Virus record (IMG/VR): IMGVR_UViG_3300032157_000003
DNA from: a virus
Length of the DNA stretch: 64,000 nucleotides
Strand: one strand, 5' to 3'
Positions 629 through 58,692 of this stretch are shown one piece after another. The notes beneath the pieces were generated by a model that did not search any database, was not told the origin of the DNA, and saw only the letters and a list, made by a program, of their open reading frames with translations. Positions within the stretch are counted from its first letter, which is position 1. Each line of letters begins with the position of its first letter. A program made the position numbers and the translations under genes.

Positions 629-3497
629 CACTGACCCCTCCTGTAATCAGGCCGGTGTCGATATTCTTCTCGGCCATCTTCTTGATGTCGAGGAACAGCA
701 TCGGGCGACCGTTGCCCATTTTCTCGAACGGGCGAAGGCCAGCAAAGTAGGACTCTTCCCTGATGAGTGTGAGGAACTGCTTGACCCCGGTGATGACCGG
801 CGGCGTGCGTTCCTCGTTGTTCATGAAGCGGACGTAGGCCGCGTGGCAGAACACCGGGTCGACGATCAGGAACTGGCCCTTCGCCGGAACGATGTACATC
901 AAGCCTTCGCGCAGGTACGGGTTCATCAGGCCGGCTTCTTCCATACCCTTCGACAGCGCAATGATCATCGCCAGTTTGGACACGACCAGATCGGTTTCCG
1001 AATGGACCGTAGAACCAACCATGCCGCCGGAAGCCATCTCCAGCAGGTCCTCTTCTTCGTCACGGACCTTCGAGGTCGAGCGGCTGTACTTGGCGAGCAA
1101 CTGCTTGGCGTAATCGTCCAGCAGGCTCTCCGCCTTCGCCAGCTTCAGGGAGGCGGCTACCTTGCGCGCCTGCCACAGACCCACAATGACGCACTGCAAC
1201 GAATAACGAGGGCGGTCGTCCATGGAATCCGGCAGCAAGGCGCTGGCCTTATCCATCAGGGCTTCCATCTCGGGCAGTGTCGTGTTCATCGCCTGAATCA
1301 TCAGCGCCTTGCCGAAGCTGCGCAGGTGCTGACGGTTGCGACGGGCGTACTCGAAGAAATCCTTGCGCCCATAGCGCTTCTGCTTGGTCAGATGAACTCG
1401 CAGGGAGCGTTCCTGAATCGCCGGCATCTCGATCTCTTGCTCAGAGCAGACGATGATCGGGGACGACAGCGGGATCACCACCGTCTCGGCGTTCACCCGG
1501 CCCATGCCGTTGCCGCCGAGTCGGCCCTTGATCGAGGACTCACCGCCCCAGCTCTGTTTGATGCGCTCGCCGGTATCCTTGAACTGCTTCGGCTCCATTT
1601 TCGACTTGTTGTATTCCTCGATGATGCGGGGAATCGTCGTGGTGGCCGACAGGTAGTCGAGCATCCCGTAGGGCGTGGCGCCCGGTGCGTTGATGCCGGA
1701 GTCCAGCGACATGTAATCGGTGCCGTTGAGCCACGTCACGATGCCTGCGGTGATCGACTTACCGGAACCAGCCGAACCCCACAGGCTCAGGACCGGGAAC
1801 TGGTTGTGCAGGTACATCAGGTGAGCCTTGTAGTGGCAGGCCGAAGACCAGCCAACGATGACGCCGATTTCGAGTGGCTTGTTGATTTGCAGCATGCACG
1901 ACAATGCCTCGTCGGCATCCTTGTCGCCCACCTCAGTAACCGAAGCCTTGCCGAAGTACGGGCGAGCCTGGAGCATCCCAAGGTACTGGTGCGTGCCCTT
2001 GACCTTGTGGTTGTTGATCGACATGTCCGGCTCAACGTAGGTGAAGACAGGTTCATCACCCACGAAGTCCAGATGTAGACCCGATGTGTAGACCTGATAT
2101 ACCTCACCCACGTCCTGATCCTCACGGTAAATAGTGATCTTGATCCGCTGCACGTCCCCGTCAGACCCTTGGAAGGTCAGGTCGGAAATGCCCTCGATCT
2201 CTTTCAGGAAGCCGGAGCGACCACTGAACGAGCTCTCTTTGAACGTGAGCTTACCGATCTCCACGCCGCCCTTCATAACGCCCATCCGGGTGCCGATGCG
2301 GCGGGGAGTGGTCCCGTCCTGCGGAACGTCGATGAACACATCCTGCGGTTGCAGAAGGAAATTCGTCACACGCTTCCAGTTGTCACCATAGCGCACGTAG
2401 TACCCATCGACACGGGCTTCTGCGCTGATGTCTAAGTCGCCGCCTTCGCCGTCAGCGTTGCTGCCTGACTCAATCGCGCAGCCTTCGCACGGGCGTTTGC
2501 CCAGCAAGGCGCGGATGGCGTTGCAGCCAAACGAGAAACCGGGCGTGTGCTCAACGTAGCGAATCTGCGCTTCGATATGCTCACGACGGGTGCGGGCGTT
2601 GTGGTACTTGCTGGAGTGGTTCGCCTCGGCAGCACGAGACGCCAGAGCGTCGGCCACCATCGGCTCAGCCCCTGCCCGGACGATGTACGCCGCAAGCTGG
2701 GTCGCCACTTGGTTGAAGTTGGTCTCGCTCTTCAGGTGCTTGGCATCGCAGAGCATCTGGATGCAGGTAGGCGGCTCGTGACGAATCTTCTCCAGCTCGC
2801 CAGAGGTGGCAATGATCACCACCTTCTGCGCCGTGCCGATGCGCTTCTTGGCCGAGTCGAACAGGGCCATCAGCTCCGGCACCTGAACATTGGGCAGCGT
2901 TTCGCAAACTACTTTGCGAGGCCCGCTCACCAGCGTCAGGTACAGCTCAGGGTCCAGCGCCATCAGCTCAGTGACCGTCACCGGTACCCGGTAGCGCCCG
3001 TCGAAACGCTCCACGTTGGGGATGCGGAAGCTGTTGCCACGGCCCCCGGAGTAGACGGAGTAGTCCACGCCTGCCACGTACAGGTCGCGGGCCATTTCCT
3101 TGTAAATCTCGGGCAGGCGCTTGAAGAACCGACCCGACGAGAACAGGCGCTCATCCACAAGGATGTGCAGCCCCTTCGAGCCGGACAGGTAAATCTGGAT
3201 GCCTGCTTCGGGCGTGCCAAGGGTCAGCAGGCGCTTCACCAGCTCGTTGCCGCTGGCGATGGCCTGGGCCAAGTCTCCCTTACAGTCGATGTCGAAGTAC
3301 AGGGGGCCTCGGTATGCGAGGCTGTCCCGGTTCCTTGGGTGGTCGGGATCGTCACCATCCGCGACGATATTGTTTACCGTCAGGATGGTGAGTTTCTTCG
3401 CGCCATTTGACAGGGCTAGGGCAACGGTATCGTCGCCGGCTTTGTCAGAGATGGCGAACCACGAGTCCTTCTCGTGCCGCTGATAATACCTGTACAT
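606..3497 (-). CDS. DNA primase-helicase fusion (AEP primase domain + Cys-rich domain + P-loop ATPase)
   Basis: AEP motifs LYFDID, YLSGSKGLH, FRIPN; PPTC...C...CEGC Cys cluster; Walker A LWGSAGSGKS; 963 aa next to helicase. Confidence 0.85.
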   Translation of the reverse strand: MYRYYQRHEKDSWFAISDKAGDDTVALALSNGAKKLTILTVNNIVADGDDPDHPRNRDSLAYRGPLYFDIDCKGDLAQAIASGNELVKRLLTLGTPEAGIQIYLSGSKGLHILVDERLFSSGRFFKRLPEIYKEMARDLYVAGVDYSVYSGGRGNSFRIPNVERFDGRYRVPVTVTELMALDPELYLTLVSGPRKVVCETLPNVQVPELMALFDSAKKRIGTAQKVVIIATSGELEKIRHEPPTCIQMLCDAKHLKSETNFNQVATQLAAYIVRAGAEPMVADALASRAAEANHSSKYHNARTRREHIEAQIRYVEHTPGFSFGCNAIRALLGKRPCEGCAIESGSNADGEGGDLDISAEARVDGYYVRYGDNWKRVTNFLLQPQDVFIDVPQDGTTPRRIGTRMGVMKGGVEIGKLTFKESSFSGRSGFLKEIEGISDLTFQGSDGDVQRIKITIYREDQDVGEVYQVYTSGLHLDFVGDEPVFTYVEPDMSINNHKVKGTHQYLGMLQARPYFGKASVTEVGDKDADEALSCMLQINKPLEIGVIVGWSSACHYKAHLMYLHNQFPVLSLWGSAGSGKSITAGIVTWLNGTDYMSLDSGINAPGATPYGMLDYLSATTTIPRIIEEYNKSKMEPKQFKDTGERIKQSWGGESSIKGRLGGNGMGRVNAETVVIPLSSPIIVCSEQEIEMPAIQERSLRVHLTKQKRYGRKDFFEYARRNRQHLRSFGKALMIQAMNTTLPEMEALMDKASALLPDSMDDRPRYSLQCVIVGLWQARKVAASLKLAKAESLLDDYAKQLLAKYSRSTSKVRDEEEDLLEMASGGMVGSTVHSETDLVVSKLAMIIALSKGMEEAGLMNPYLREGLMYIVPAKGQFLIVDPVFCHAAYVRFMNNEERTPPVITGVKQFLTLIREESYFAGLRPFEKMGNGRPMLFLDIKKMAEKNIDTGLITGGVSDGWSDVG

Positions 3498-3527
3498 GCA
3501 AATCCCCCACGGCCCGTTCTTTTCTTC

Positions 3528-3794
3528 TTAGCGACCCTTGCTGCTTTGCACGTTGCCGGCCTGAATCTCAAGGATCAGGCGGTCAACGGCCCGAACGGGT
3601 ACCGGTCGATGGCGGGGGGTGCCTTCGGTGGCGAACCAAGCGGCCACGTAATTTGCACTGTAGCCGGTGTAACGTGAAACGTCGTTGCGGGTCAGGCGGT
3701 AGTGCGCCGCCAGTTGCCGCAGGTATGCGGTGCGTTCAGAGTCGGTGATGCTTTCGGTATAAAACACCTTACCGGACTCGGTGGTGATCTTCAT
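3528..3794 (-). CDS. small HTH DNA-binding protein
   Basis: LRQLAAHYRLTRNDVSRYTGYSANYVAAWF resembles an XRE-type HTH; ATG at 3794 with RBS. Confidence 0.6.
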   Translation of the reverse strand: MKITTESGKVFYTESITDSERTAYLRQLAAHYRLTRNDVSRYTGYSANYVAAWFATEGTPRHRPVPVRAVDRLILEIQAGNVQSSKGR

Positions 3795-3825
3795 GGTGGT
3801 TCCCTTTATTGTGCAACCGTCTTGT

Positions 3826-3854
3826 AACTTAGTGTACCTAGTACAGGTTTGCAA
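3826..3854 (-). promoter_or_regulatory. sigma70-like promoter
   Basis: Minus strand TTGCAA-N17-TAAGTT upstream of the HTH/primase/helicase genes; spacer holds inverted repeat TGTAC-N3-GTACA (3833-3845). Confidence 0.5.
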
Positions 3855-3856
3855 GC

Positions 3857-3895: not shown

Positions 3896-4549
3896 CTACT
3901 GCCCCATATCAAGGTCAGGGAGACGGATCGCACGCAGTTCCCTGTCTGCCTCAGCATCCAAGGGGTTGTACTCAGCCATGCGCCCTTCCATGAGGCGATT
4001 GCCGAACTCTTCAGTGGCCGTGAGTGGCCGGTCTTTCCTGACCACCGGTAGGTCCACCAGTGTGGTCATCCGGTTCCCTGCCTTGGGCACAGCATGCAGC
4101 AGGCGCAGGTCCTGCGCGCCACGGACAGCGGCTGCGTCGGCCATTATCCGCGCTTGGTAGGCACGGTTCGGCGGGACCTTCATCGGCGCGTCCGTCAGCT
4201 TCTCCAGCACCAGCGGGCGTTGCCGTGGGCCAAAGTTGTTTCCGTGGATGTCCGCCTTCGCCCTGAACAGGCAGTAATCGTGGTCGCGCACCAACTCCCT
4301 TCCGCAAAGTACTTTGTGAAGGTTGCCGGTGGTCGGCTTGTTCGGCAGGTCCACCACCAACAGCGCCCCGATACTCGCGTCGTTGTAGAGGGCAGCGAGG
4401 CCGTCATAGATCGCGGTCGAGGTCACCACCTGGGGTTTGGCCACCACTTCTTTTGGTCGACCTTCGCGGAAGTAGCTGGCTTCTACGGTCTCTCCTTCGA
4501 GGATGGCGACCGCCAGCGGCAGGCGCACCATTTCAGTGGGGTCATTCAT
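3896..4549 (-). CDS. hypothetical protein
   Basis: 217 aa ORF; ATGA overlap with upstream gene. Confidence 0.7.
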   Translation of the reverse strand: MNDPTEMVRLPLAVAILEGETVEASYFREGRPKEVVAKPQVVTSTAIYDGLAALYNDASIGALLVVDLPNKPTTGNLHKVLCGRELVRDHDYCLFRAKADIHGNNFGPRQRPLVLEKLTDAPMKVPPNRAYQARIMADAAAVRGAQDLRLLHAVPKAGNRMTTLVDLPVVRKDRPLTATEEFGNRLMEGRMAEYNPLDAEADRELRAIRLPDLDMGQ

Positions 4550-6939: not shown

Positions 6940-7791
6940 TCACAGGTAGCGCAGGGGATTGAAGCGGTTGATGTTGTTGGTTAACGCGATTTCCAGCAGC
7001 GAGTCGTTGGGGAAGTCGTTCGCAAAGTCCTTTGCAACCGACTTCTTGTACGTCTCGCTGTAGGCCTTCCAGAGCATGTCAGCCTCGATTTGCAGCTTGG
7101 CCAGCTCGTTCTGCATCTGCTGGTACTGCTCGTGCGCGGCGTCCACCTCCTTGGCGTGGGCCTTCTGCGGCCACAGGCCGAGGTCGATCTGGGTCAGCAG
7201 GGGTTTCACCTGCTGGGCGTTGAAGGCTTCGAGGGCCACGATCAGCACCTCCTGCATCCTCGCCAAAGCGATCTTGGCCTCCCGCAGCAGGGAGGTGCGC
7301 AGCTTGTGCCCTGCCAATGCCGCCGCATCCTCGGCACGCTGGCGCTGGGATTCAATGGTACGCAGCCCCTTGACCGAGTAGGGCTGATCGACCGTCAACT
7401 CCAGATGCACGCGAGGCGGGGTCCGCTGCAAACCTGCCTCGACCTGATAGGCCAGCGACACGGATTGGCGGAGCTGGACACCCCATTCTTGGCCCTTCAG
7501 CACCTCACCGAGTTTGTTCGAGAACGTCTGATAGGCCTTCTTTACTGGCTCAGGCAGGTACTGGAACGACGGCTCGCCGTCGTAAGGTTCCAGGCTCAGG
7601 TAGGCGGTGGCCGAGGCGTGGGCGTACCGGCCACCCCCTTCCGTGACATGCTCCGTGGACGTGGTGACGTCTGGCACGAGGTCCAGCGGCAGGTCCTTGT
7701 CCTCGAAGTTGTCGATATTGCATTCGTCCGGCAGGTAGAGCAGGACGAGATTGAGGTCCGCGTAGAAGCGGTGCGCTACGTTGAACAGCAT
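6940..7791 (-). CDS. hypothetical protein (coiled-coil C-terminus)
   Basis: 283 aa ORF with RBS GAGGA and the CCTTCATCGAGGA leader motif. Confidence 0.75.
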   Translation of the reverse strand: MLFNVAHRFYADLNLVLLYLPDECNIDNFEDKDLPLDLVPDVTTSTEHVTEGGGRYAHASATAYLSLEPYDGEPSFQYLPEPVKKAYQTFSNKLGEVLKGQEWGVQLRQSVSLAYQVEAGLQRTPPRVHLELTVDQPYSVKGLRTIESQRQRAEDAAALAGHKLRTSLLREAKIALARMQEVLIVALEAFNAQQVKPLLTQIDLGLWPQKAHAKEVDAAHEQYQQMQNELAKLQIEADMLWKAYSETYKKSVAKDFANDFPNDSLLEIALTNNINRFNPLRYL

Positions 7792-7850: not shown

Positions 7851-8108
7851 TTAGCTCTTGGCCTCGATTCGCTCCTTGAGGGAGACGGCCTCGGCGTCAG
7901 AGATGACCCCGTAGTGGTGCATGTCGTTGACGGCAGCCTTGAGGATGTTAGCCAGTGGCGCACCCATGTTGGCTGGCGCAGCCGGCGCGGCGGCTTCTGC
8001 CACTGCCTCGGCGTTTGCTTCAACGGCGGCTTCAGCAGCAACAGTCTCGACGGTCTCAGGGACCGGCGCGGCGGCTTGGTTGAAAGCGGGGCGGTTCTTG
8101 TTTGTCAT
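7851..8108 (-). CDS. Ala/Glu-rich hypothetical protein
   Basis: 85 aa; RBS GAGGA; palindrome directly upstream. Confidence 0.7.
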   Translation of the reverse strand: MTNKNRPAFNQAAAPVPETVETVAAEAAVEANAEAVAEAAAPAAPANMGAPLANILKAAVNDMHHYGVISDAEAVSLKERIEAKS

Positions 8109-8146
8109 CTATGTTTCCTCGGTTGTTCGCAAAGTGCTTTGCGAGA

Positions 8147-9989: not shown

Positions 9990-10214
9990 TTATTGGCCGG
10001 ACGATTCCGGCTTAGTTTTCCTGTCTGCGCGGTTGCTACAGATCAGGTGGTTTTGCCTGTGGCTCAAATGCCAAGGCGTTTCATGGTGGCAATCGGGACA
10101 GTGGACAAAGCCCACCGGATCGCCCGGTTGCACATCATTCATCTCCTGCATATGGCAGGTTGCAAGTCTTACAACGTCAGGGTTGCCGCAGTTTGCGCAG
10201 TGGTGCTCCGCCAT
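9990..10214 (-). CDS. small Zn-ribbon protein
   Basis: CANCG...CPDC. Confidence 0.55.
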   Translation of the reverse strand: MAEHHCANCGNPDVVRLATCHMQEMNDVQPGDPVGFVHCPDCHHETPWHLSHRQNHLICSNRADRKTKPESSGQ

Positions 10215-10226: not shown

Positions 10227-10448
10227 TTAGCTGTAACCGCGTTTGAAGTTCACCCCCCGAATCCAGAGTTTGGAGTGGGTATCAAACACAGCATTGCCAG
10301 GATTCTGCTGACGGTAAAGCGAGAAATCGCGGGTGGCCGTAGCCGGGGCAATGCCGAAGTAGTCCTCCAACTGGTCAGGCCCCACGCTGCCGTAGTGCAG
10401 CAGCAGGAAGTCGATCAGGCGCAGGCGTTGCTCTACGGCGTACCTCAT
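10227..10448 (-). CDS. stand-alone CapW/BrxR-like winged-HTH protein (copy 1)
   Basis: EQRLRLIDFLL..G.V....L.DYFGI....ATRDFSLY....PGN..FD...K.W.R...F resembles the N-terminal wHTH of WYL regulators; no WYL/WCX domain. Confidence 0.7.
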   Translation of the reverse strand: MRYAVEQRLRLIDFLLLHYGSVGPDQLEDYFGIAPATATRDFSLYRQQNPGNAVFDTHSKLWIRGVNFKRGYS

Positions 10449-10675
10449 CTCTCCGGCAGCTCCAGCAGTTGCTCATGGGTCAGGTGCGGAACTTCCCGGC
10501 TGCGCCCCGGCTGGCTGTACAGGTAGCAGGCCTTGACCGCAGTGAAGACGTCTTCAATCAGAATCCGACAGAACTTCTTGCGGTCATAGCTGAGCACCAC
10601 GCAATCGCGCACAGGTGCCAGCGCCCCTGCCTTGTCCCCGAGTTCGACAAACGAGAAGTCGGTCCACGCCTTCAT
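10445..10675 (-). CDS. hypothetical protein
   Basis: MKAWTDFSFVELGD...VLSYDRKKFC; coupled to both neighbours. Confidence 0.7.
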   Translation of the reverse strand: MKAWTDFSFVELGDKAGALAPVRDCVVLSYDRKKFCRILIEDVFTAVKACYLYSQPGRSREVPHLTHEQLLELPER

Positions 10676-11127
10676 TGCAGCGGGTTCCTTTGGTGCGAGT
10701 GCATGACCCGTTCGTAGGCCTGACAGGTCGGGCAGCACTTGTCCCACTGCGGCACGCTGGTCAGGTGGCCGTTGATCTGCTCGGCCAGTTCGTTGCCCAT
10801 GGCTTGGTCGCAGCCTTCATTCAGGGCCACGCGCCACGACACCAGTTGTTCCACCGGCACCGGGATGCGGTCCCATGGATTGAAGATCACCGGGGCCAGA
10901 ACAGGGGCTGGCGCCACCCGGTCCCATTCCATCGGGGATTCCTGGCCGGTCCAGATCAGGTTGAAAATCTCCTGAGTGCTGATGTTTTTCGCAAAGTCTT
11001 TGCGATGCCAGCCGTGCATGAAGAACGGACAGTCGCCTTCACAGCGGATGAACACGGAGACGCTGGTGAACTCAGGGTTGCGGGTGTCGAAGCGCAACTC
11101 GTCGTAGAAAGAAATACAGTCAGCCAT
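10672..11127 (-). CDS. hypothetical protein
   Basis: 151 aa; RBS GGAGGG; contains an in-frame palindrome copy. Confidence 0.65.
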   Translation of the reverse strand: MADCISFYDELRFDTRNPEFTSVSVFIRCEGDCPFFMHGWHRKDFAKNISTQEIFNLIWTGQESPMEWDRVAPAPVLAPVIFNPWDRIPVPVEQLVSWRVALNEGCDQAMGNELAEQINGHLTSVPQWDKCCPTCQAYERVMHSHQRNPLQ

Positions 11128-11140
11128 GGTGACCCTCCAG

Positions 11141-11362
11141 TTATTCGTACACACGCGCAAACGTCGCGCTACGTTCCCAGCGTTTGGTGCTGGCGTTGTA
11201 TTCCATGTTGCCGTCTGCCATTTCCCGGTACATCGCGATGTCGAGGCTGGCCTGCGCCATGCTGATCCCGCTGTAGTTCATCAGCGCGTCCCGTTGGACA
11301 TAGCCGTAGTACGCCAGCAGGAAGTCGATCAGGAGCATGCGCCGTTCGATAGCGTAGTTCAT
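11141..11362 (-). CDS. stand-alone CapW/BrxR-like winged-HTH protein (copy 2)
   Basis: MNYAIERRMLLIDFLL...GISMAQASLDIAMY; 73 aa, 32/73 identical (ungapped) to 10227-10448; RBS GGGGGAGG. Confidence 0.75.
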   Translation of the reverse strand: MNYAIERRMLLIDFLLAYYGYVQRDALMNYSGISMAQASLDIAMYREMADGNMEYNASTKRWERSATFARVYE

Positions 11363-12617: not shown

Positions 12618-12842
12618 TTAATCCTTTTCCCTCAATCGTTTGTCAGAGTTAAAGTTGATTCGACGCTTGCCTTCAAAGTTCAGGCGAGCATAGAACGTGC
12701 CCAAGCCGGGGATTCGCAGGCGGTCGTCTTCCCAGAGAGCGTCTGCGATGGAGCTGATCATTGCCTCCAGCATGCGCTCGGCGGATCGGCGGTCTACGCC
12801 CGACTTGGCCGCGATGCGGTCCACCAGTTCTGTCTTCAGCAT
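12618..12842 (-). CDS. HU/IHF-like DNA-binding protein (short arm)
   Basis: MLKTELVDRIAAKSGVDRRSAERMLEAMISSIADAL..DDRLRIPGLGTF; 74 aa. Confidence 0.85.
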   Translation of the reverse strand: MLKTELVDRIAAKSGVDRRSAERMLEAMISSIADALWEDDRLRIPGLGTFYARLNFEGKRRINFNSDKRLREKD

Positions 12843-12895: not shown

Positions 12896-12924
12896 ATTGT
12901 ACACTATATGGATACTATTGTCAA
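12896..12924 (-). promoter_or_regulatory. sigma70 promoter
   Basis: TTGACA-N17-TACAAT on the minus strand upstream of the HU-like gene. Confidence 0.8.
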
Positions 12925-13453: not shown

Positions 13454-13484
13454 CGGGGTATTCCTTTCGCAAAATGCTTTGTAA

Positions 13485-14915: not shown

Positions 14916-14968
14916 GATGCTGTCCTCTCTGAAGGTGACTCGCAAAGACTTTGCGAGCGATGGAACGC

Positions 14969-16370: not shown

Positions 16371-17054
16371 TCAGATGGCCTCTTCGTCAGCGGCGGTCAG
16401 CCCCCCTTGTTTGCCGTCCAGCCGATCAAGCCCTGACTCAGCAGCCAGAATGTTGACCGCTTCATAGGGCTTCAGCTTGTCCTCCATCAGCCCTGCGACC
16501 ACCTGCGGCTTTTCGTAGTAGGTGTCGTTCAACTCCAGGCCATAGAAGCGCTTCAGGTGGGCCTCCAACTTGCGGGTGTAGACCTCCTGCTCCGATTGGT
16601 CACCGGGCAGCAGCGGCAGGCGGGCCTCCACCGCCCAGCGCTTGATCATCACCTTCATCTCTGCGAGCTCCGGCACCATCCAGTTGTCCGAGATTTGGTA
16701 CCAGTCCTTGTCGGAGGTTTCGCGCAGCAGGAAGCTCGCAAAGTCTTTGCGTTTATGGTCAGGCCAGTGGAAGGCCGGTTCGAGGAAGTCGTAGGCGAAC
16801 ACGCCGACGCCCTGTTCCTCTAGCGCCTCCCAATCGACCATGGACTTCAGGGTTTGGCAGGCGTAGGTGGCGTACATCAGCGCGCCACCCATCAGCCGGT
16901 CGAAGCCCGTGTTGATCCGGGCCGACAGGTTCTTCTTGTTGCCCTTGGCGTCCAAGTCCATGTACAGCAGCTTGGCCAGCCCGCCGAACAGGGTTCCGAC
17001 GTCAATGTCATCGCCACGGGCAATGGTCACGCTATCCAGCCTTGTCAGGTTCAT
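16371..17054 (-). CDS. hypothetical protein
   Basis: 227 aa; ATGA coupling. Confidence 0.7.
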   Translation of the reverse strand: MNLTRLDSVTIARGDDIDVGTLFGGLAKLLYMDLDAKGNKKNLSARINTGFDRLMGGALMYATYACQTLKSMVDWEALEEQGVGVFAYDFLEPAFHWPDHKRKDFASFLLRETSDKDWYQISDNWMVPELAEMKVMIKRWAVEARLPLLPGDQSEQEVYTRKLEAHLKRFYGLELNDTYYEKPQVVAGLMEDKLKPYEAVNILAAESGLDRLDGKQGGLTAADEEAI

Positions 17055-18150: not shown

Positions 18151-18203
18151 GTTGCAGTCCTCGGTGAAGGGGGCTCGCAAAGTTATTTTGCGAGCCGGGT
18201 TGG

Positions 18204-19938: not shown

Positions 19939-19991
19939 TGTTTGCTCCTTGATGAAGGTGGCTCGCAAAGTGGCTTTGCGAGCCGGTTGGG

Positions 19992-20477
19992 TTACACGTT
20001 GTCTAGTTCATTACGCATTCGCTCGGCCTCGTCCCTTGCAGCCTCTGGCGTCGGGAAAGGGCCGGCATGAAACAGCTTCCCTGCTCGCCGGAATTTGACG
20101 AGAAACTTCCCTCGTTTCTTGTACACGTTCAGGTAACCAACCCCTGAACGGACCACCTTCAGGTTTGCATTGTTTACCTCATAGCCAGCCGCACGCAGGT
20201 TGAGGAACCGGTTGTTTCCGGGGTTCCCGTCCCTGTGGTCAACCAGCGATGGGGGCCAGAAGCCCGTGACTATCAGCCAAGCCAAGCGGTGCGCTTTGTA
20301 GCGCCGCTTGGCAATGGTGATGATCCTGTAACCTTTGCTGTCGGTAGTCCCGGCAGGCACACCGGCTGCGTGGCCGGGGGTGGCCTTCACTCGAATGAAC
20401 TCTCCAGTCTCAGGGTCATAACTGACGTTCTGGAGGACTTCTTCAACGGTCGGTATAAAGGCCGCAGGTTTCGTCAT
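19992..20477 (-). mobile_element. free-standing HNH endonuclease with AP2 domain
   Basis: YKAHRLAW...VDHRDGNPGNNRFLNLR (HNH) plus SGVGYLNVY...GPFPTPEAA (AP2). Confidence 0.9.
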
Positions 20478-35301: not shown

Positions 35302-35388
35302 GGGCAAGGGCAAGGGCAAGGGCAAGGGCAAGGGCAAGGGCAAGGGCAAGGGCAAGGGCAAGGGCAAGGGCAAGGGCAAGGGCAAGGG
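35302..35388 (+). repeat. (GGGCAA)14 GGG tandem repeat
   Basis: 14 perfect hexamers plus GGG counted directly; degenerate copies at about 35273-35292. Confidence 0.95.
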
Positions 35389-36260: not shown

Positions 36261-36265
36261 CGACC

Positions 36266-37572: not shown

Positions 37573-37613
37573 AAAACCCCACCCCGTCACCATCCGGGCG
37601 TGGGGTTTTTGTT
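37573..37613 (+). terminator. intrinsic terminator
   Basis: AAAACCCCAC...GTGGGGTTTTTGTT. Confidence 0.6.
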
Positions 37614-37685
37614 ATCTACCCACCCCCAAACCCCAGCACGAACGCCTAAACTCAATTGCAAAGTCCTTTGCGAAGGAGCCCCGCC

Positions 37686-38458: not shown

Positions 38459-38464
38459 AGGCGT

Positions 38465-38492
38465 CAAAACCGGGCCTTTTGACCCGGTTTTG
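38465..38492 (+). terminator. intrinsic terminator
   Basis: CAAAACCGGG-N8-CCCGGTTTTG after the endolysin. Confidence 0.6.
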
Positions 38493-38628
38493 GTCATTTT
38501 TATGCGGTTTCGCCCCGCTTTCTCCCCAAAACTGGGGCTTTTCAGGGCGAAACCGTCGCTTTTTATGCGTAAACAGACCCTATACTGGGGCCTGAAAACC
38601 CCTTCCCGTACTGCCTGGAGCCTCCGCC

Positions 38629-39012
38629 ATGACCAAATGGGCACACGCCGACGTCCTCGATCAGGGGCCGAATTTCATCAAATCCAACTGCAACAAGCTG
38701 TGCGTGATCAGCGCCTACTCGGCGGCGGACTCCTACGCCACCGTCAACGGCAATATCTTGGCCGAAGTGACCATGGCCTCGGGTGACTTCACCCTTGCCA
38801 CCTCCGGCAGTGATCGAACATTGACGACCGCCGCCGGCAAGTCAGACGCCAGCGCCAACGCCACGGGCGCGGCCAGTCATCTGGCGTTCGTCGACACCGC
38901 CAACAGCAAGGTACTGTGGGTCACGGAGGAAACTTCCGGGCAGACCATCACCTCGGGCAACCCGGTGAACTTCCCGAGCCTCGTCTACACCGCTAAACAG
39001 CCAACTGCATAA
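38629..39012 (+). CDS. small virion structural protein (fibre-associated)
   Basis: MTKWAHADVLD...QTITSGNPVNFPS; Thr/Ser/Ala-rich, heads the fibre cluster. Confidence 0.6.
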   Translation: MTKWAHADVLDQGPNFIKSNCNKLCVISAYSAADSYATVNGNILAEVTMASGDFTLATSGSDRTLTTAAGKSDASANATGAASHLAFVDTANSKVLWVTEETSGQTITSGNPVNFPSLVYTAKQPTA

Positions 39013-39030
39013 CTTCAGGGGAAATCCATC

Positions 39031-39459
39031 ATGAGTAAGGGCAATACATTCGAGAACGACCTGTTGAAGTTGATCTTCAACGCCACGGCCATCGGCAACA
39101 TCGCGGACAACGCGGCTTCCAGCCCGCTGACCAACCTGTACGTGAGTCTGCACACCGCCGATCCGGGCGAGGCCGGCGACCAGACCACCAGTGAGATCAG
39201 CTACACCGGCTACGCCCGAGTGGCGGTAGCGCGTACCACTGGTGGCTGGACCGTGACCAACAACAGCGTGTCGCCGGTCGCCAACATCGACTTCGGCGCC
39301 TGTACCGCAGGCTCCGGCACGGCCACCTACTTCGCGGTGGGTACGGCGTCGTCGGGCGCGGGCAAGCTGCTGTACAGCGGCGCTGTCTCCCCGTCGCTGG
39401 CAGTGTCCAACGGCGTGACGCCACGCTTGACCACGGCCAGTACCGTTACGGAAGACTGA
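39031..39459 (+). CDS. Gp80-like virion/tail-fibre protein
   Basis: LYVSLHTADPGEAGDQTTSEISYTGYARVAV. Confidence 0.75.
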   Translation: MSKGNTFENDLLKLIFNATAIGNIADNAASSPLTNLYVSLHTADPGEAGDQTTSEISYTGYARVAVARTTGGWTVTNNSVSPVANIDFGACTAGSGTATYFAVGTASSGAGKLLYSGAVSPSLAVSNGVTPRLTTASTVTED

Positions 39460-39463
39460 AGCC

Positions 39464-39718
39464 ATGGCTCTCGACACCAGCGGCCTCATCGAAACCTGCG
39501 ACCCCTACGTGTGGATCGAGGAAAAGACAGAGGGCTACGTCCGTTACGTCAACCTCGACGGGCGACGGTGGGAGGTCTTTGGCGTTTGCGACAATCGTGG
39601 CGATTGCTGGGAGGGGGCGGTTGGACCCGCCCCCGAGCTGGACTGCCCGGTCACCCCTGAGTTCACTGGCTGCTGCCCCTTCACCTACGTGGAGCTGCCC
39701 CCTGCCGAGGTTGACTGA
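39464..39718 (+). CDS. Cys-rich small protein
   Basis: GVCDNRGDC...LDCPVTPEFTGCCPF. Confidence 0.65.
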   Translation: MALDTSGLIETCDPYVWIEEKTEGYVRYVNLDGRRWEVFGVCDNRGDCWEGAVGPAPELDCPVTPEFTGCCPFTYVELPPAEVD

Positions 39719-42321
39719 TGGCAACTAAGCTCTATTTCCACGCCGCCGCCAACGCCCTCTCTGGGACCTACCCAACCGGCGAGCAAGGCGCTGGCACACC
39801 CAGCTATTCGGGTACCGGCGCCACCACGCTGCGCAAGATGGACACCACGATTGGTACCAGCCAGACCTCAATGGCCGGTAGCTCGCTGGGCAGCACGGCG
39901 TTCCAGTTCGGGTTCTACGGGTTCTGGTGCTCACCGAAATTGAGCGGTGATCAGACCATTGGTGGCTCAGGCCTCGGTTACCGCCTCAACATCGCCAACG
40001 CCCAGTCCAACCTGAACATGGACTTTGGCGAAGAATGTGACGCCACGGCCTACATTTGGAACCCGTCAACCGGCGCTGTTCAGGGCACTTTGTTTGACTG
40101 GTCCAGCACGAATGGTGGCAACGGCCACGGTGCCCTAGAGCCTACGTCGGCATCTTCCGAACAGGTCAACCACGTCGTCGGACCTGAAACCAGTGCGGTC
40201 AACGCCAGCGACGGCTACGTGATCATTGTCGAAATCTGGATGCGGCACCAGCAGCCGATGGGTTCGTCCTATACCGGCACCATCTACTACGACGGCACCA
40301 CCGAGAACACCACGCCGCAAGCGGTGGTCAGCAACCACGCGAGCTTCATCGAGTTCGACCAGAACATCGTATTCCAAGGGTCGAGCAGCTCAATGGTGGG
40401 CAGCGCCGCTGGTACGGGCGCTGCCTCCGGCACCGGGCGGGTGACTTTTGCCGGTGTGGGTACTGCCGCTGGCACCTCGACGGCCTCCGGCACCGGGCGC
40501 GAGACGACTGCCGGTACGGCCTCCGCCACTGGTACGGGTGCTGCCTCCGGCACCGGGCGCGAGACGGCAGCGGCGACCGCCTCCGCCGCTGGTACATCGA
40601 CCGCCGATGGTGTCGGGCGCGAGACGGCTGCCGCCACGGCCTCCGGCGCAGGTACTTCGACCGCTGCCGGTGTCGGCCTGGAAACGGCTGCCGCCACTGC
40701 GACCGGTGCAGGGACTGCTGGGGGCACCGCCACCGGTACCGCCATCAATGCCTTGGCGGGTACTGCTGCCGGGACATCGACCGCTGCCGCGTCCGGCTCT
40801 GCTGTGTCCTCCAGCCCCGCGACCGCCGCTGGCACCTCGACGGCCTCAGCCGTTGGCGCGCTCGTGTTGCCCGCTGTTGCCTCTGCCGCTGGTACCTCGA
40901 CGGCTTCCGGTGTCGGCGCAGAAACTGCTGCCGCGACCGCCACGGCAGCAGGCACTTCGACTGTAGCCGCGACCGGCGCAGAAACGGCTGCCACGGTGGG
41001 CAGCAGCGCCGGGGTAGCCACTGCCAGCGGCACCCTTGCCGCCACGCACACCCTGACCGGCAACAACGCCCAGACCACGCCGACTTCCAGCACAGGCGCG
41101 ATCAGCCAGACCCACCTGCTGACCGGCAACAACGTCCAGGCCACAGCGGCCTGCACCGCTGCGGCAGTCGGCCAGAGCCACATCCTGTCCGGCAGTGCGG
41201 CCAGGACCATTCCGACCAGCAGCGTCGGGTCGATCAGCCAGAGCCACGTACTGGGTGGCAACGCGGTCAGAACCACCCCGGTTTCGAGCAACGGCGCGGT
41301 CGGGCAGACGCACCAGTTGCTGGGCGATGCGGCCAACCAGCCGAACATCAGCGGCACGGGCAGCGTCAGCTCCAGTGGCGACCTCACCGGCAACAGCACG
41401 CGCACCCTGCATATCAGCAGCGTTGGCAGCATCCAGCAGACGCAGACCGTCGCCGGGAATGCGGCCAACCAGCCGAACATCAGCAGCACCGGCAGCATCC
41501 AGCAGACGCACACGCTGACGGGCAACTCGGTCAACCAGCCGAACACCAGCAGCACGGGCGCCATTGGCCAGCAGGTAGACCTCACCGGCAACTCGGTGCT
41601 GGGCTACCATACCAGCACGAATGGCGAGATCAGCCAGACCAGCAACCCCGGCGTGTTCGTCCTGAAAGCGCTGCTGGCCATTGTTCAACTGAAAACGGGA
41701 GCGCATTTCTTGACGACACAAACCCACGACATCACGATGGCCAAGGGCAAGACCTTCTCCTTGCAGCTCAGCTATGCCGAGGACGAACTGGTCTACAAGC
41801 CGATCACGGCAATCCCGACCCTTGCCCCGGCAAGGCTCACCGTCACCGCCCACGGCCTGCCGTCGCGCTGGCCGGTACGCACCGAGAGCGCCATTGCGCC
41901 GACCGAGCTGGCCATGGTCGCGCCGAACTGGCGACTGGGCACCCGGTTTGACGCCAACACCGTCGAGCTCAACGACCTCAACCTGCTCAGCGCCAAGCCG
42001 TTTGTGGGTCCAGCCGTGCTGGTCTATCAGAAGCCGGCGGACATGACCGGCTGGAAGCTGCGCATGCAGATTCGAGACCTGACCAGCAACGCCCTGCTGC
42101 TCAGCGCGTCCAGCGACGTGTCAGACGGCGCCGTGGGCACCATCGACGTGGACGTCCCCAACAGCGCCTTTGTCGTCAACTTTACAGCGGCCACCACCGC
42201 CGCCGTGGCCTGGACCAAGGCCGGTTATGACATCGAAGCGATCCTGCCGGATGGCAGCGTGGTCAGCCTGATCGGCCCGAGCAAAATCACCGCCGAGAAG
42301 GAGTACACCGTATGGCCGTAA
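39718..42321 (+). CDS. long fibre-like virion protein with two repeat types and a C-terminal adaptor-like domain
   Basis: GTAAGTSTASG-type repeats, then HxLxGNxxQxxxSSxGxIxQ repeats, then the KGKTFSL...YDIE domain. Confidence 0.75.
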   Translation: MATKLYFHAAANALSGTYPTGEQGAGTPSYSGTGATTLRKMDTTIGTSQTSMAGSSLGSTAFQFGFYGFWCSPKLSGDQTIGGSGLGYRLNIANAQSNLNMDFGEECDATAYIWNPSTGAVQGTLFDWSSTNGGNGHGALEPTSASSEQVNHVVGPETSAVNASDGYVIIVEIWMRHQQPMGSSYTGTIYYDGTTENTTPQAVVSNHASFIEFDQNIVFQGSSSSMVGSAAGTGAASGTGRVTFAGVGTAAGTSTASGTGRETTAGTASATGTGAASGTGRETAAATASAAGTSTADGVGRETAAATASGAGTSTAAGVGLETAAATATGAGTAGGTATGTAINALAGTAAGTSTAAASGSAVSSSPATAAGTSTASAVGALVLPAVASAAGTSTASGVGAETAAATATAAGTSTVAATGAETAATVGSSAGVATASGTLAATHTLTGNNAQTTPTSSTGAISQTHLLTGNNVQATAACTAAAVGQSHILSGSAARTIPTSSVGSISQSHVLGGNAVRTTPVSSNGAVGQTHQLLGDAANQPNISGTGSVSSSGDLTGNSTRTLHISSVGSIQQTQTVAGNAANQPNISSTGSIQQTHTLTGNSVNQPNTSSTGAIGQQVDLTGNSVLGYHTSTNGEISQTSNPGVFVLKALLAIVQLKTGAHFLTTQTHDITMAKGKTFSLQLSYAEDELVYKPITAIPTLAPARLTVTAHGLPSRWPVRTESAIAPTELAMVAPNWRLGTRFDANTVELNDLNLLSAKPFVGPAVLVYQKPADMTGWKLRMQIRDLTSNALLLSASSDVSDGAVGTIDVDVPNSAFVVNFTAATTAAVAWTKAGYDIEAILPDGSVVSLIGPSKITAEKEYTVWP

Positions 42322-45411: not shown

Positions 45412-45441
45412 AAAAGGCCACCCGAGGGTGGCCTTTCTTTT
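45412..45441. terminator. bidirectional terminator
   Basis: AAAAGGCCACC-CGAG-GGTGGCCTTTCTTTT between convergent genes. Confidence 0.85.
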
Positions 45442-46018
45442 ACAGTACCGTACACCAGCCCTTTCGAGCCCCCCCGTCATACGGTCGGGCCATCCCTGAC
45501 AGCACCATGTCCTCCACCACGTCCTGCCCGTCGATCATCAGACCGCCGAGCAGACGCCCGTACTTCTCCGTTTTCACGTTCACCAGCTCGATGCGCTTGG
45601 CGCTGCGCAACATGACCTCAAGCTGAATCTGCGCCAGCGCCGCCTGCTTCTTCTCCGATTCGCAAAGTCCTTTGCGTTCCGGCGTGTCCATCCCCACGAT
45701 CCGCACGCCCATCTTCTTGCAGAGGAACGGCAGCTTGTCGGCGCACTCCGGCAGGCGGATGAAGAACGTGTCGCCGTCATACACCGACAAAACGTCCCTC
45801 GGGTTGATCAGGTAGTTACCCTTCTCAGGCGGCGTGCTGTAGACCACCGGAGCTGTCGAATCCGCCAGTGCCTCGACCTTCTCCGCCGACAGCACCACCT
45901 TGTCGCTGGAGTGGGCCAACGGTGAGTACCAGCAAAAGGAAGCCCCCACCATCGTGATCAACGCCCCCGCGATGAACCCGTTTCCAAACCAAACTCCCTT
46001 AGTCATGCGGTCCCCCAT
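45440..46018 (-). CDS. thermonuclease (SNase family) with N-terminal membrane anchor
   Basis: VYDGDTF, VRIVGMDTPE, EKYGRLL, YDGGARKGWC. Confidence 0.88.
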   Translation of the reverse strand: MGDRMTKGVWFGNGFIAGALITMVGASFCWYSPLAHSSDKVVLSAEKVEALADSTAPVVYSTPPEKGNYLINPRDVLSVYDGDTFFIRLPECADKLPFLCKKMGVRIVGMDTPERKGLCESEKKQAALAQIQLEVMLRSAKRIELVNVKTEKYGRLLGGLMIDGQDVVEDMVLSGMARPYDGGARKGWCTVL

Positions 46019-47204: not shown

Positions 47205-47477
47205 ATGGAGTCACCAGTGGCTGAAGTGCGTAAGCCGATCACTGTCCTCTGGATACGACACGGCAAAGGCCGGTCGATCAAGGTCGAACTGTTTGAGGCG
47301 GCGCAGTTTCCGAGCCTGGAACGCTTCACCGACAAGCGGGGGCAGCCGGTCACACCGAACAACATCGCCAAGTTCTACCGATTGCGGCTGAACGGCGTGT
47401 GGTTTCCCCGAGGACAACGGGCGCTATTCACCCGCAATCAGTGCGTTGCGCTCATCAAGAAGGCAGTTTTCACATGA
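47205..47477 (+). CDS. hypothetical protein
   Basis: 90 aa; ATGA overlap with next gene. Confidence 0.6.
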   Translation: MESPVAEVRKPITVLWIRHGKGRSIKVELFEAAQFPSLERFTDKRGQPVTPNNIAKFYRLRLNGVWFPRGQRALFTRNQCVALIKKAVFT

Positions 47478-47857
47478 TCAGCATGTCCGCTTATATGCAG
47501 AAACGAATCAGCGATGCCAAAGAGCTGAACTATACCCTCTGGCTGCGCATTTGCGGCCTGTGCTGGTGGGCCAGTTTGGCGAAAGGGCGCGGCTTTTTGA
47601 CCAAGGACGGCGAGGTGGTGCAGAACTTGGCCGGCAACGGCGCCCTGCGTGTGCTGCTGGGTGGTTTCATCGCCATGCTGGCCGCGTTGTTCATCATGCT
47701 GCGCGCCCTGATCAACATCGTTTTCCTGCTGATCGGCCTGCCCCTGATCCCCCTGTTCGCGCTGGGTTTTCACATCTGGACCAACCGCAAACTCGCAAAG
47801 TCTTTGCGAGATTTTGAGGCCAAGGTGGCTGCGGCCCGTTCGGGGGTGAAGCCGTGA
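47474..47857 (+). CDS. membrane protein (possible holin)
   Basis: Two TM segments, basic C-terminus; holin role is speculative. Confidence 0.5.
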   Translation: MISMSAYMQKRISDAKELNYTLWLRICGLCWWASLAKGRGFLTKDGEVVQNLAGNGALRVLLGGFIAMLAALFIMLRALINIVFLLIGLPLIPLFALGFHIWTNRKLAKSLRDFEAKVAAARSGVKP

Positions 47858-50213: not shown

Positions 50214-51668
50214 ATGCCAAGGGGACTCTACGTGGCTGGTGAAACTCAAACCGTGGTTCTGCCGAACCGGTTGGTGAACAAAGCGGTCACCGAGACCGTG
50301 GCGGATCGTGCAGGCGCCGGCCAAAACGTACCCCGCGACAGTCGCCAGACTGTCAACGAGTCGATTACCGTCGCTCGACAGTCCAACAACCTCATCACGT
50401 CGTTGCGCTCGCTGTACTCCCGCGACGGCACTTTCTCTACCGCAGTGTTCAACTTTGTCGAGGTGGCCATGAGCGGCCACAGCGTCAAGGCCTACAACAC
50501 CAAGACCTCACAGTTCGACCTACAGGGCAGTCTGCTGGCGGAGCAAATCATCGCCAGCATGGACACCCTGTACGACTACAGTCTGGGCTACGGTGACAAG
50601 GACGGGATGAACCCCCTGCTGGAACGCTGCATCCTTGAGACGCTGCTGACCGGCACCCTTGCCAACGAACTGGTTCTGAACAAGGCCCGCCTGCCTGAGA
50701 AGGTGCTGGTGATCCCGTTTGAAACCATGGAATGGAAGAACGGCAAGGGTAAGCGGTTCCCGATCCAGAACCGTAGCCAAGGCGACCCGGTACAACTGGA
50801 CCTCGCCACCATCTTTGTGACCGAGCTGCACCGGCAGGCCAACCGCGCCTACGCCGATTCCATGCTCGCCGCTGGTGTGAACTCGACCATGCAGTACGCC
50901 GAGTTCATCCAAGAGATGCGCCGCGCCGTCCGCCGTCAGGGCCATGGCCGGATGATTCTGACCATCAGCCTTGAGACGGTGATGGCCGCGCTGCCGGAAG
51001 AGATCAAGGCCGACAACGAGAAGCTGCAACGCGCACTGGACGACATCAAGGACCGCATCGAAAGCGAGCTGGGTGGCCTCAACCCCGAAGACGCGCTGGT
51101 CATGTATGACACGGTGACCACCGACATGCTCAAGGGTGAAGGCGAGAAGTCTGACTACGTGCCGCTGATCGAAACCATGTCCGGCCAGCTCGCCATGTCG
51201 CTGAAGACCCCGCCGTCGATCCTCGGTCTGCGCCTGGAAGGTAGCCAGTCCCTGTCCAACACCGAGTCGCTGATCTTCCTGAAGACCGCCAACTCGGTAC
51301 GTCGTCCTACCGAAGTGAACATGAGCCGCATCCTGACACTGGCTGCGCGCCTGTTCGGGTCGGACGTTTACGTCGATTTCAAGTTCAACCCCATCGACCT
51401 TCGCCCGGAGCTGGAACTGGAGGCGTTCAAGACCATGCGTCAACAACGCATCCTCGAACTGCTTTCCGAAGGCTTCATCACCGATGAAGAGGCCGGCTGG
51501 GAACTGGGCACAGGGGTTCGCGCCCCCGGCGCACCGAAGCTGTCTGGTACAGCCTTTTTGCGCGGCTCCAAGGCGGTTGACGCCAAGGACGCCAGCCCGA
51601 ACGCCGACCCGCAAGGTCGCGCCCTACAGTCCAGCAGCCCGAAAAAGGCCGGAGGAAAGTCGCAATGA
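50214..51668 (+). CDS. portal protein
   Basis: 484 aa between terminase and protease; LSMSLKTP..LG / FNPIDL-type portal features. Confidence 0.8.
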   Translation: MPRGLYVAGETQTVVLPNRLVNKAVTETVADRAGAGQNVPRDSRQTVNESITVARQSNNLITSLRSLYSRDGTFSTAVFNFVEVAMSGHSVKAYNTKTSQFDLQGSLLAEQIIASMDTLYDYSLGYGDKDGMNPLLERCILETLLTGTLANELVLNKARLPEKVLVIPFETMEWKNGKGKRFPIQNRSQGDPVQLDLATIFVTELHRQANRAYADSMLAAGVNSTMQYAEFIQEMRRAVRRQGHGRMILTISLETVMAALPEEIKADNEKLQRALDDIKDRIESELGGLNPEDALVMYDTVTTDMLKGEGEKSDYVPLIETMSGQLAMSLKTPPSILGLRLEGSQSLSNTESLIFLKTANSVRRPTEVNMSRILTLAARLFGSDVYVDFKFNPIDLRPELELEAFKTMRQQRILELLSEGFITDEEAGWELGTGVRAPGAPKLSGTAFLRGSKAVDAKDASPNADPQGRALQSSSPKKAGGKSQ

Positions 51669-54919: not shown

Positions 54920-54946
54920 GCCGGGGGCTTAGGCCCCCGGCTTTCT
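54920..54946 (+). terminator. intrinsic terminator
   Basis: GCCGGGGGC-TTAG-GCCCCCGGC-TTTCTT. Confidence 0.85.
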
Positions 54947-54978
54947 TCGCAAAGTACTTTGCGAGAGAGAGAACCCAG

Positions 54979-57788: not shown

Positions 57789-57791
57789 CTC

Positions 57792-58601
57792 ATGGCCCTC
57801 GGCTCTCCACAAACGAACAAATTTCAGATCGGTACTGCCGAACTGCGCGTGGGTCCTATGACCTCCGCGATGAAGCTGCTTCAGACTCACTCCATGGGTC
57901 TGGTGGACAGCGTGACGATCACTATCGGTCAGGAATCCGTCGACCTCGAAGGCATGTTCCCGAAACAACTGATCGACTCCGCCATCGTGCGTCAGTCGGC
58001 AGAAGTTTCGGCGGTTCTGCGCGAATACTCGCGTCGTAACCTGAAGATCGCCATCGGTGAAGGCGTATCCACTGCCACCACCGACGTGGCGACCACCATC
58101 GCCTCTCCAGGCACTGCCGGTCAGACGGCGATCACCGTAGCCGCTGCTCAGGGCGCCAACTTCACTGTTGGTGACTTGGTTGTGACCTACAAGACCGCCG
58201 CTCCTGAGAACGTGCAGATTCTGCGCGTGCAGAGTATCGCCACCGATACCCTGACTCTGGATACCGACACTCCGCTGCTGTTCGACATCGCTTCGTCTGA
58301 CCCGATCTTCATCGCCAAGCAAGTGGCAATCGGTGCGGTAACGAAGACCAACTACATGGCCGCAATGGTCGTGCAGAAGGAAAACACCACTGGTCGTCCA
58401 ATCGTCTGGAACTTCTGGAAAGCGTCTGTCTCGGGCAACCTCGACTACGCCACCAACTCCGACGACTTCGCCTCGACTACCGCTACCCTGAAAGCGCTCG
58501 CGCCTTCGGCTGCGGAGTACGGCGTTGGTCAACCGCTGGCTCACCTGTCGGACATCATCCCGACTCACCCTGTAGGTTTCTTCGCCCTCGGCGGCAGCTA
58601 A
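57792..58601 (+). CDS. major tail (tube) protein
   Basis: FQIGTAELRVG...; highly-expressed codon bias; followed by a terminator; no sheath gene nearby. Confidence 0.8.
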   Translation: MALGSPQTNKFQIGTAELRVGPMTSAMKLLQTHSMGLVDSVTITIGQESVDLEGMFPKQLIDSAIVRQSAEVSAVLREYSRRNLKIAIGEGVSTATTDVATTIASPGTAGQTAITVAAAQGANFTVGDLVVTYKTAAPENVQILRVQSIATDTLTLDTDTPLLFDIASSDPIFIAKQVAIGAVTKTNYMAAMVVQKENTTGRPIVWNFWKASVSGNLDYATNSDDFASTTATLKALAPSAAEYGVGQPLAHLSDIIPTHPVGFFALGGS

Positions 58602-58618
58602 TCTATAGGCGGTACCGC

Positions 58619-58647
58619 AAAGCCGGCCTAGTGCCGGCTTTGTTTTG
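58619..58647 (+). terminator. intrinsic terminator
   Basis: AAAGCCGGC-CTAGT-GCCGGCTTTGTTTT. Confidence 0.8.
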
Positions 58648-58692
58648 CCTGTTCGCAAAGCACTTTGCGAGATTTTCAGCCTTGGAGCCCCT

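Follow-up and report, generated by a model that had tools for sequence, protein, structure and literature searches.

Stoperators of the cluster A mycobacteriophages L5 and TipsytheTRex are dispersed sites that stop both the initiation and the elongation of transcription (PMC9283540, PMC6550527). The DNA analysed here, a stretch of 64,000 nucleotides from the viral IMG/VR record IMGVR_UViG_3300032157_000003 (the window), carries an array of a short palindrome, TCGCAAAG-N1-3-CTTTGCGA, whose likeness to such systems is the subject of this work. Among plasmids, KorB of the IncP plasmid RK2, a protein of the ParB family, recognises 12 OB operators of a fixed 13-bp geometry. In Streptomyces phage phiC31, conserved inverted repeats (CIRs) occur in many early intergenic regions, where they are bound by the c repressor and double as operators. 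In this line, the C repressor of phage 16-3 and CytR of E. coli are dimeric helix-turn-helix proteins that recognise palindromic half-sites at more than one spacing.

A dispersed palindrome and its conservation

Exact matches to the palindrome occur 18 times in the window, as the original prediction had counted, and not once in 100 dinucleotide-preserving shuffles. When up to two arm mismatches are allowed the number of sites rises to 28 (18 exact, eight with one mismatch and two with two), of which the exact and one-mismatch sites, 26 in all, are credible; the array claimed earlier is thus real, its total of 29 copies somewhat too high. Among the 26 credible sites the spacer measures 1 nt in four, 2 nt in 17 and 3 nt in five, and 17 of them are intergenic or non-coding, one overlaps a stop codon and eight are intragenic. 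The intergenic copies stand mostly where they had been described, between a stop codon and the next ribosome-binding site, starting 1–22 nt past the upstream stop and ending 12–44 nt ahead of the next start, and a gene junction consists of little beyond a palindrome copy and a ribosome-binding site. Half-sites outside palindromes are almost absent, and arm variants are almost confined to arm positions 1, 2 and 8. In the leftward arm, the spacing of the sites widens with distance from a control region near 33 kb, from 50–850 bp beside it to 1.2–2.5 kb and then 3–4 kb, and to the right of 45.4 kb there are four sites only (the intragenic 45660, and 47793, 54947 and 58653). A literature search for the palindrome word returned unrelated primer sequences only.

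The window is part of an 89,318-bp siphovirus genome contig, whose sequence is present in soil, rhizosphere and plant metagenomes. No close isolate was found by megablast of 20 kb against 50,697 phage records, and the best match of its TerL, at 35% identity, is to Vibrio phage SHOU24-like phages. A relative, the 66,336-bp IMG/VR contig G001, is syntenic with the window at 67–93% nucleotide identity and extends the leftward arm with genes for a family A DNA polymerase, SNF2 and PIF1-like helicases and an SbcCD-like pair. A third phage is represented by the fragments L163 and L175 of one sample, with about 53% identity in a 476-amino-acid protein and 56% in RadC. Four more metagenomes contain DNA contigs of further relatives. 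When viral and metagenome contigs were scanned with proteins, only the G001 contig came up again. RNA runs were listed for the structural region, and no RNA dataset as carrying the early region.

Conservation in related phages, a check proposed with the original prediction, was found in G001 and in the third phage as the same word at the same places. G001 contains 25 exact copies, and 21 of the 22 window sites that fall within aligned stretches have a same-place copy there. In 19 orthologous pairs of window and G001 the arms differ at 3 of 304 positions and the 10-nt flanks on each side at 88 of 380 (ungapped, and somewhat inflated by indels), the spacer differing in 11 of the 19 pairs, three by length, which bears out the earlier description of conserved arms round a variable centre. 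Moreover, L163 and L175 together hold 13 copies (10 exact) in 19.4 kb, at orthologous places, and a fourth fragment, L176, has the copy behind RadC. The stems do not covary between orthologues, their arms being invariant and the centre free, and some one-sided mismatches are stably inherited, those of 37656 and 45660 in two phages and that of 16736 in three. In each of two proteins unrelated to one another, an intragenic copy encodes RKDFA, by CGC-AAA-GAC-TTT-GCG in all three phages, and since AAA and TTT are rare in the phage (0.20 and 0.15 of the codons of their own amino acid), their retention indicates that selection acts on the nucleotides. The window has lost one copy by a clean 30-bp deletion, as the presence of this copy in G001, L175 and another metagenome shows. 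Odd joints in the aligned contigs of the other metagenomes (19983>14971, 24079>28042 and 32448) were rejected as rearrangements, the aligner having put a relative's copy on a same-spacer copy elsewhere. In a more distant clade (33% identity, L165–L168) the palindrome word is absent; its gene junctions have hairpins of other sequence, one pair of which (GGCGATACRGCTCGCC) is repeated, from which nothing was drawn because inverted repeats are common throughout that G+C-rich DNA.

Scans of bacterial genome contigs gave single copies only among the matches listed, and no repeat family. In the order to which a Marinomonas genome belongs, and which we take to include Pseudomonas under GTDB, an even sample of 401 genomes yielded two with one copy each, and all other viral contigs and listed bacterial stretches likewise had single copies, by our own estimate about the chance number for the size of the collection. 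Among the collections searched, the multi-copy palindrome was found in this phage lineage only. Pfam and PHROGs scans took in about 80 open reading frames (ORFs) of 60 amino acids or more, drawn from the window and from the G001 arm, which together span about 84 kb of a genome of roughly 89 kb. Most of these ORFs match no family of known function, and among them there is no integrase, repressor, ParB or RNA polymerase family; with neither integrase nor repressor recognised, the phage looks virulent. Altogether, the reality, conservation and positions of the sites are observed directly in the genomes compared, and the array is, on the strength of this comparison, real, functional and lineage-specific, in agreement with the phage-borne cis-acting system originally proposed.

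Candidate functions of the array

The favoured reading, to which we give about an even chance of being right, is that of a distributed operator and roadblock array for a symmetric DNA-binding protein that would control the leftward early operon. One symmetric, probably dimeric, sequence-specific protein would bind the palindromes on double-stranded DNA, with Y-TCGCAAAG as the half-site and half-site centres 9–11 bp apart, about one helical turn. On accumulating, this protein would repress initiation at the control region and, at the dispersed sites, block or terminate the elongating host RNA polymerase, the outcome being a genome-wide shut-off or timing of the early genes. Sites for a dimeric phage protein headed the candidates put forward earlier, and they rank first among the readings weighed here; that the sites are bound, by which protein and with what consequence for transcription is what we infer.

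Several observations argue for this operator array. The arms are conserved and the centres free, with the same word at the same places in the third phage; the stems lack covariation, one-sided mismatches are inherited, and rare codons hold the intragenic copies. Half-sites are rare outside the palindromes, and the density of sites falls away from the control region. The latter belongs to a 1.9-kb non-coding stretch (31.98–33.84 kb) whose AT-rich core (32650–33300(-); G+C content 37–54%) contains several TACAAT-type -10 elements. Three conserved copies lie between a strong terminator at 33611–33647 (-22 kcal/mol) and this core, in a spacer where little RNA is expected, and two more lie downstream, in the same layout as in G001. 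As RNA, the core hairpin would be weak (-5.7 to -8.3 kcal/mol). Finally, sites that stop elongation from dispersed positions are established in cluster A mycobacteriophages (PMC9283540).

The flanks point in the same direction. Their first base shows a symmetric preference, Y on the left and R on the right, and Watson-Crick pairs at this position are not in excess (10 observed against 10.2 expected and 15 against 12.2, under independence), T.G and C.A combinations being as common as expected, a pattern that fits a 9-bp half-site and not a longer stem. With stems that never covary, variable loops and a Y..R preference free of extra pairing, the hairpin that had originally been preferred to an operator loses its precedence. 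On the side of transcription, a near-consensus sigma-70 promoter, TTGACA-17-TACAAT, precedes the HU-like gene at 12896–12924(-), internal to the early arm, with no copy nearby, and recurs in the third phage (L163:5795–5830); no sigma-70 match was found in or beside the copies. A conserved sigma-70 promoter that lacks a copy indicates that the host sigma-70 polymerase transcribes the phage and that the palindrome is not a promoter. Of all copies, only 31255 qualifies as an intrinsic terminator (G+C-rich stem and U tract), being alone in topping a terminator-like hairpin; four others lie 0–42 nt behind separate strong terminators. This association of terminators and copies was given little weight because both are confined to few intergenic gaps; striking as it is, it is not significant once these are allowed for.

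Other observations weigh against an operator array. The length of the spacer, 1–3 nt, differs between orthologous sites, more than a rigid dimer would allow; a flexible dimer could take all three spacings, and 16-3 C repressor and CytR are precedents for operators with a variable centre. Nor would a symmetric binder lead one to expect the strand bias of the spacer: read as mRNA, the spacer ends in A (CA, CCA) in about 18 informative site groups and starts with T in about four (hand tally), and the bias is relative to transcription on both genome arms. Flank positions 2–3 are complementary somewhat above expectation, and at site 30435 two double flank changes between window and L175 keep complementarity; since CCT/AGG flanks recur at other copies, this change may be a replacement by another copy instead of a compensatory one. 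Moreover, three contigs of other phages that encode homologues of a candidate binder, the first of two BrxR-type winged-helix proteins, have neither this nor another dispersed palindrome within 10 kb. Co-occurrence with these homologues, which are stand-alone and of BrxR type, thus gives the first winged-helix protein no support. Candidates conserved to an unusual degree between the window and the third phage are the HU-like protein (12618–12842; 92%), the two BrxR-type winged-helix proteins (10227–10448 and 11141–11362; 84%) and a Cys-rich protein of 74 amino acids (91%), Cys-rich and possibly zinc-binding proteins being encoded at 9990–10214 and 31650–31895, to which a protein with a weak, sub-threshold HTH_31 match (3528–3794), 99% identical to its G001 counterpart, may be added. 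Neither PHROGs nor Pfam identified any of the small early proteins as a named regulator. We name no binder, a phage-encoded protein being favoured and a host regulator possible.

Part of the same evidence would suit an RNA hairpin at the cistron junctions of polycistronic mRNA, with a stem of 7–8 bp and a loop of 3–5 nt, which might be read by a sequence-specific RNA-binding or processing factor, stabilise 5' or 3' ends, or insulate translation beside the ribosome-binding site. Such a hairpin, which we consider possible at well below an even chance, accounts for the position of most copies between a stop codon and the next ribosome-binding site, tolerates a variable centre naturally, would explain a spacer bias that follows transcription on both arms, and agrees with the copy that tops a terminator-like hairpin in two phages and with the pairing-preserving changes at 30435. 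Flanks extended by at least three complementary pairs are found at 11 sites, against 2.5 in shuffles, orthologues and paralogues among them not being independent. However, the core stem has little stability and the extended stems mostly do not persist between orthologues, in mRNA sense the first flank pair of several copies in the early arm is a C.A mismatch, and invariant stems without compensation round variable loops are the reverse of what protein-bound RNA hairpins usually show. The eight intragenic copies held by rare codons and the three copies placed behind a strong terminator, upstream of the promoter region, are also hard to reconcile with an mRNA signal, and the only protein of a recognised RNA-binding family, CsrA, binds GGA motifs and not this stem. 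A wider version, in which a folded single strand, be it mRNA or DNA exposed in replication, is read by a phage factor specific for the stem sequence and indifferent to the loop, appears doubtful to us; it would mark nearly every cistron junction of the early operon of about 30 kb for processing, insulation or priming.

Spread without a dedicated regulator, as a selfish or passively spreading palindromic cassette (REP/MITE-like) or as PeSL-like recombination modules, we hold to be improbable. One copy is a clean 30-bp presence/absence difference between phages, neighbours within a genome share spacers (at least six with GG in the control region of G001), flanks of recurrent type (CCT/AGG, GGC/GCC) suggest that sites were copied from one another, and the gene of an HNH homing endonuclease adjoins copy 19963. 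But the 30-bp difference is a loss in the window, the copy being present in three other sequences, and the sites keep their places where proteins have diverged by about 50%, their arms being under strong purifying selection. The three phages share one gene order and most indels and differences in gene content are not bounded by copies, which speaks against the shuffling points of the original prediction. No transposase, RAYT (Y1_Tnp) or integrase was recognised by Pfam in the scanned ORFs, and no host-chromosome family of the repeat in the bacterial genomes searched.

Single-stranded DNA hairpins serving replication or recombination, as priming signals for the primase, nick sites or resolvase targets, are in our judgement highly improbable. 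A palindrome gives the same hairpin on either strand, the phage encodes a primase, a family A DNA polymerase, helicases and the SbcCD-like pair, and the density of copies peaks round an AT-rich region that is a possible origin. Against this, the distribution is not even and tracks the early operon, with few copies in the arms devoted to replication and structure. The nick sites suggested earlier find no support, and nicking at a palindrome would hit both strands. Arms of 8 bp are, moreover, too short for stable cruciforms. As for N4-type hairpin promoters, or promoters of another phage-specific transcription system, the copies lie just upstream of many genes and their stem and loop sizes resemble those of N4 early promoter hairpins, but with canonical sigma-70 promoters present and conserved elsewhere without the motif, a leader of only 12–24 nt past the copy and no RNA polymerase recognised in the scanned ORFs, this candidate of the original prediction is scarcely credible.

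Individual sites and their surroundings

Some 60 mostly small genes occupy the minus strand between about 33.8 kb and position 1, the primase gene being the last. A one-mismatch copy at 2902–2919 lies inside this gene (606–3497(-)) and its G001 orthologue is exact; the two-mismatch look-alike at 4302–4319 is not kept in G001 and is probably not a member of the array. Another one-mismatch copy with an exact orthologue, 7020–7037, is found inside gene 6940–7791(-), about 80 nt from its 3' end, followed by the exact intergenic copy 8127–8144, which is 2 nt past a stop codon and 18 nt ahead of the ATG of gene 7851–8108(-). The exact copy 10989–11005, with a 1-nt spacer, encodes RKDFA inside gene 10672–11160(-) and is identical in G001 and at L163:7906. 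At 13467–13484 there is a decayed copy with three mismatches, whose counterparts in G001 and at L163:5232 have one mismatch each. Exact and intergenic, the copy at 14940–14956 stands upstream of the gene for the 476-amino-acid protein, with orthologous spacers of 1, 3 and 2 nt in the three phages, and the one-mismatch copy 16736–16752, inside gene 16371–17054(-), recurs in the same imperfect form in G001 and at L163:1915. Two intergenic copies have GGC/GCC flanks, 18175–18193 with one mismatch and 19963–19981 exact, the latter adjoining the HNH gene. This gene, of the HNH_3 and AP2 homing-endonuclease type (19992–20477(-)), is absent from the same junction in G001, which identifies it as an insertion next to the copy.

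Further along the arm all copies up to the control region are exact. That at 21168–21185, identical in G001, falls at codon 9 of gene 20891–21211(-), 28 nt past the upstream stop; that at 23693–23711 overlaps the stop codon of gene 23689–24054(-) and has its counterpart at L175:8507; the intergenic 26062–26079 has a spacer of 2 nt in the window and 3 nt in G001 and L175; and 28042–28060, inside gene 27747–28190(-), is identical in the three phages, spacer included. The intergenic copy 29598–29615, compared with G001 and L175, lies 1 nt past a stop codon, and 30435–30452, also intergenic, is downstream of the RadC-like gene with flanks GGGT/ACCC in the window and GCCT/AGGC in L175. Copy 31255–31272 forms the top of the terminator-like hairpin 31249–31278(-), which has a T-rich tail, in the same arrangement as at L175:458, and 31928–31945 is intergenic. 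Within the control region, 32379–32396 and 32429–32446 occupy the downstream side, 50 bp apart. On its other side are a one-mismatch copy at the edge of the AT-rich region (33282–33299, exact in G001), the exact 33494–33512 with seven further complementary flank pairs, and a one-mismatch copy (33561–33578) 32 nt downstream of the terminator at 33611–33647(-).

Beyond the control region, the two-mismatch variant at 35029–35046, inside an ORF of 437 amino acids (33844–35157(-)), has arms with the symmetric changes described before (TTGCAAAG/CTTTGCAA); it sits in a stretch without alignable counterpart and is a doubtful member of the array. A one-mismatch copy at 37656–37673 lies 42 nt past a terminator (37577–37613(+)) and 12 nt ahead of an ATG, and another (45660–45677) inside an SNase-like gene (45440–46018(-)), both identical in G001. 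The remaining copies are exact: 47793–47809, inside the 3' end of gene 47399–47857(+) and compared with G001; 54947–54964, directly past the terminator 54920–54946(+) that follows the major capsid gene; and 58653–58670, 6 nt past the terminator 58622–58646(+) and 22 nt ahead of an ATG.

Besides the copies, the AT-rich region contains a 14-bp inverted repeat, TGTACAATGCCAGT ... ACTGGCATTGTACA, about 19 nt apart (32662–32708), which is kept in G001, and several further TGTACA elements; they may represent divergent -10 elements, a second operator or an origin. In G001, about ten direct repeats of CCCTTACATCTTGWTCCA (approximately 50,870–51,650 in reverse-complement coordinates) lie between the control region and the first genes of the early arm, and at the same places the window has GTTCCACC / CTGATCCACCCC repeats, which are shorter and include some to either side of copy 31255. 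A leader, CCTTCAYNNAGGA, fused to the Shine-Dalgarno sequence, precedes eight early genes (7799–32276(-)), four with and four without a palindrome, indicating that leader and palindrome are independent modules; its CAAGGA core is similar to a CsrA/Rsm binding site. In the window, Rfam and tRNA scans gave no matches.

The early arm (8–31 kb in the window, and L163) is rich in gene types of plasmid leading regions and anti-defence islands, among them RadC-like JAB, TerB, DUF3085, DUF6874, DUF5983 and a weak CbtA-like match, and the third phage encodes ArdA (Antirestrict). Where leftward genes give way to rightward ones there is a hexamer array of GGCAAG (35273–35388; 19 copies, 91% matches). The block from 35.8 to 45.4 kb encodes CsrA, a PL7 alginate lyase and an M15 endolysin, the lyase directly following the CsrA homologue (36063–36904(+); CsrA 36063–36260, Pfam E 1.5e-18), and the presence of the lyase hints at a host that makes alginate, such as Pseudomonas. 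CsrA also adjoins a BrxR-type winged-helix gene in L174, an unrelated phage contig. About 3.2 kb of this block (38458–41711, with the genes of 38629–39718 and the first part of an ORF of 867 amino acids) have no counterpart in G001, where 142 bp are found. From 47.2 kb the plus strand carries the terminase, portal, protease, major capsid and tape-measure genes.

Comparison with known systems

Short palindromes directly past stop codons in operons, with an occasional discrete presence or absence, are a trait shared with REP/RAYT elements and with the PeSL of T4. REP elements occur in hundreds of copies in the host chromosome; the palindrome studied here formed no such repeat family in the genomes searched, lacks a GTAG head and is accompanied by no RAYT gene, and it differs from the PeSL in that its unit holds no promoter and its boundaries show no shuffling, synteny being conserved. 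Unlike in an N4-type system, where a virion or phage single-subunit RNA polymerase reads the hairpin, no large ORF scanned matches an RNA polymerase family, and sigma-70 promoters are present. The half-site sequence CGCAAA is one that we take to resemble PurR/LacI-type operators, but the central CG step that defines LacI-type operators is absent.

Among operators, those of 16-3 C repressor and CytR accommodate more than one spacing, but these proteins have few sites and no genome-wide array. The CIRs of phiC31 belong to a temperate phage, have a fixed spacing and bear no sequence relation to the present word. Closer is KorB, a dimeric global repressor that acts at promoters and away from them through one palindrome dispersed over its replicon; the spacers of 1, 2 and 3 nt depart from the fixed geometry of KorB-OB and ParB-parS, and no ParB_N match occurs in the scanned ORFs, those of 60 amino acids or more. 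With the cluster A stoperators, the array shares more than 20 copies of one short word, placed mostly in short intergenic spaces and at the early promoter. Cluster A sites, in contrast, are 13 bp long, asymmetric and orientation-dependent, and serve a monomeric two-domain immunity repressor in temperate phages, whereas the present site is a perfect 8+8 palindrome with only its spacer strand-biased, in a virulent-looking phage; neither homologue nor family of the immunity repressor (helix-turn-helix and stoperator domain) was found in the roughly 80 ORFs scanned of the window and the G001 arm.

Outside temperate actinophages and IncP plasmids, operator arrays that span a genome and affect elongation are not well studied, and here some 26–30 sites remain unchanged across about 50% protein divergence in a virulent-looking phage of an unexplored soil lineage, forced even into coding DNA and tolerating three spacings. 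Should a binder be found, it would make a new global switch of early genes and a portable part consisting of an 18-bp site and a small transcription-blocking protein; were the hairpin reading true, the copies would be a new type of cistron-junction signal, and a genome-wide hairpin reader specific for the stem sequence and indifferent to the loop would be a new kind of system. Whichever reading holds, a single DNA word outlines the regulatory skeleton of the phage. As compared with the systems described so far, the array would work like the stoperators of cluster A or the OB sites of KorB and yet belongs to neither, and its variable spacer and deep conservation are the features that stand out.

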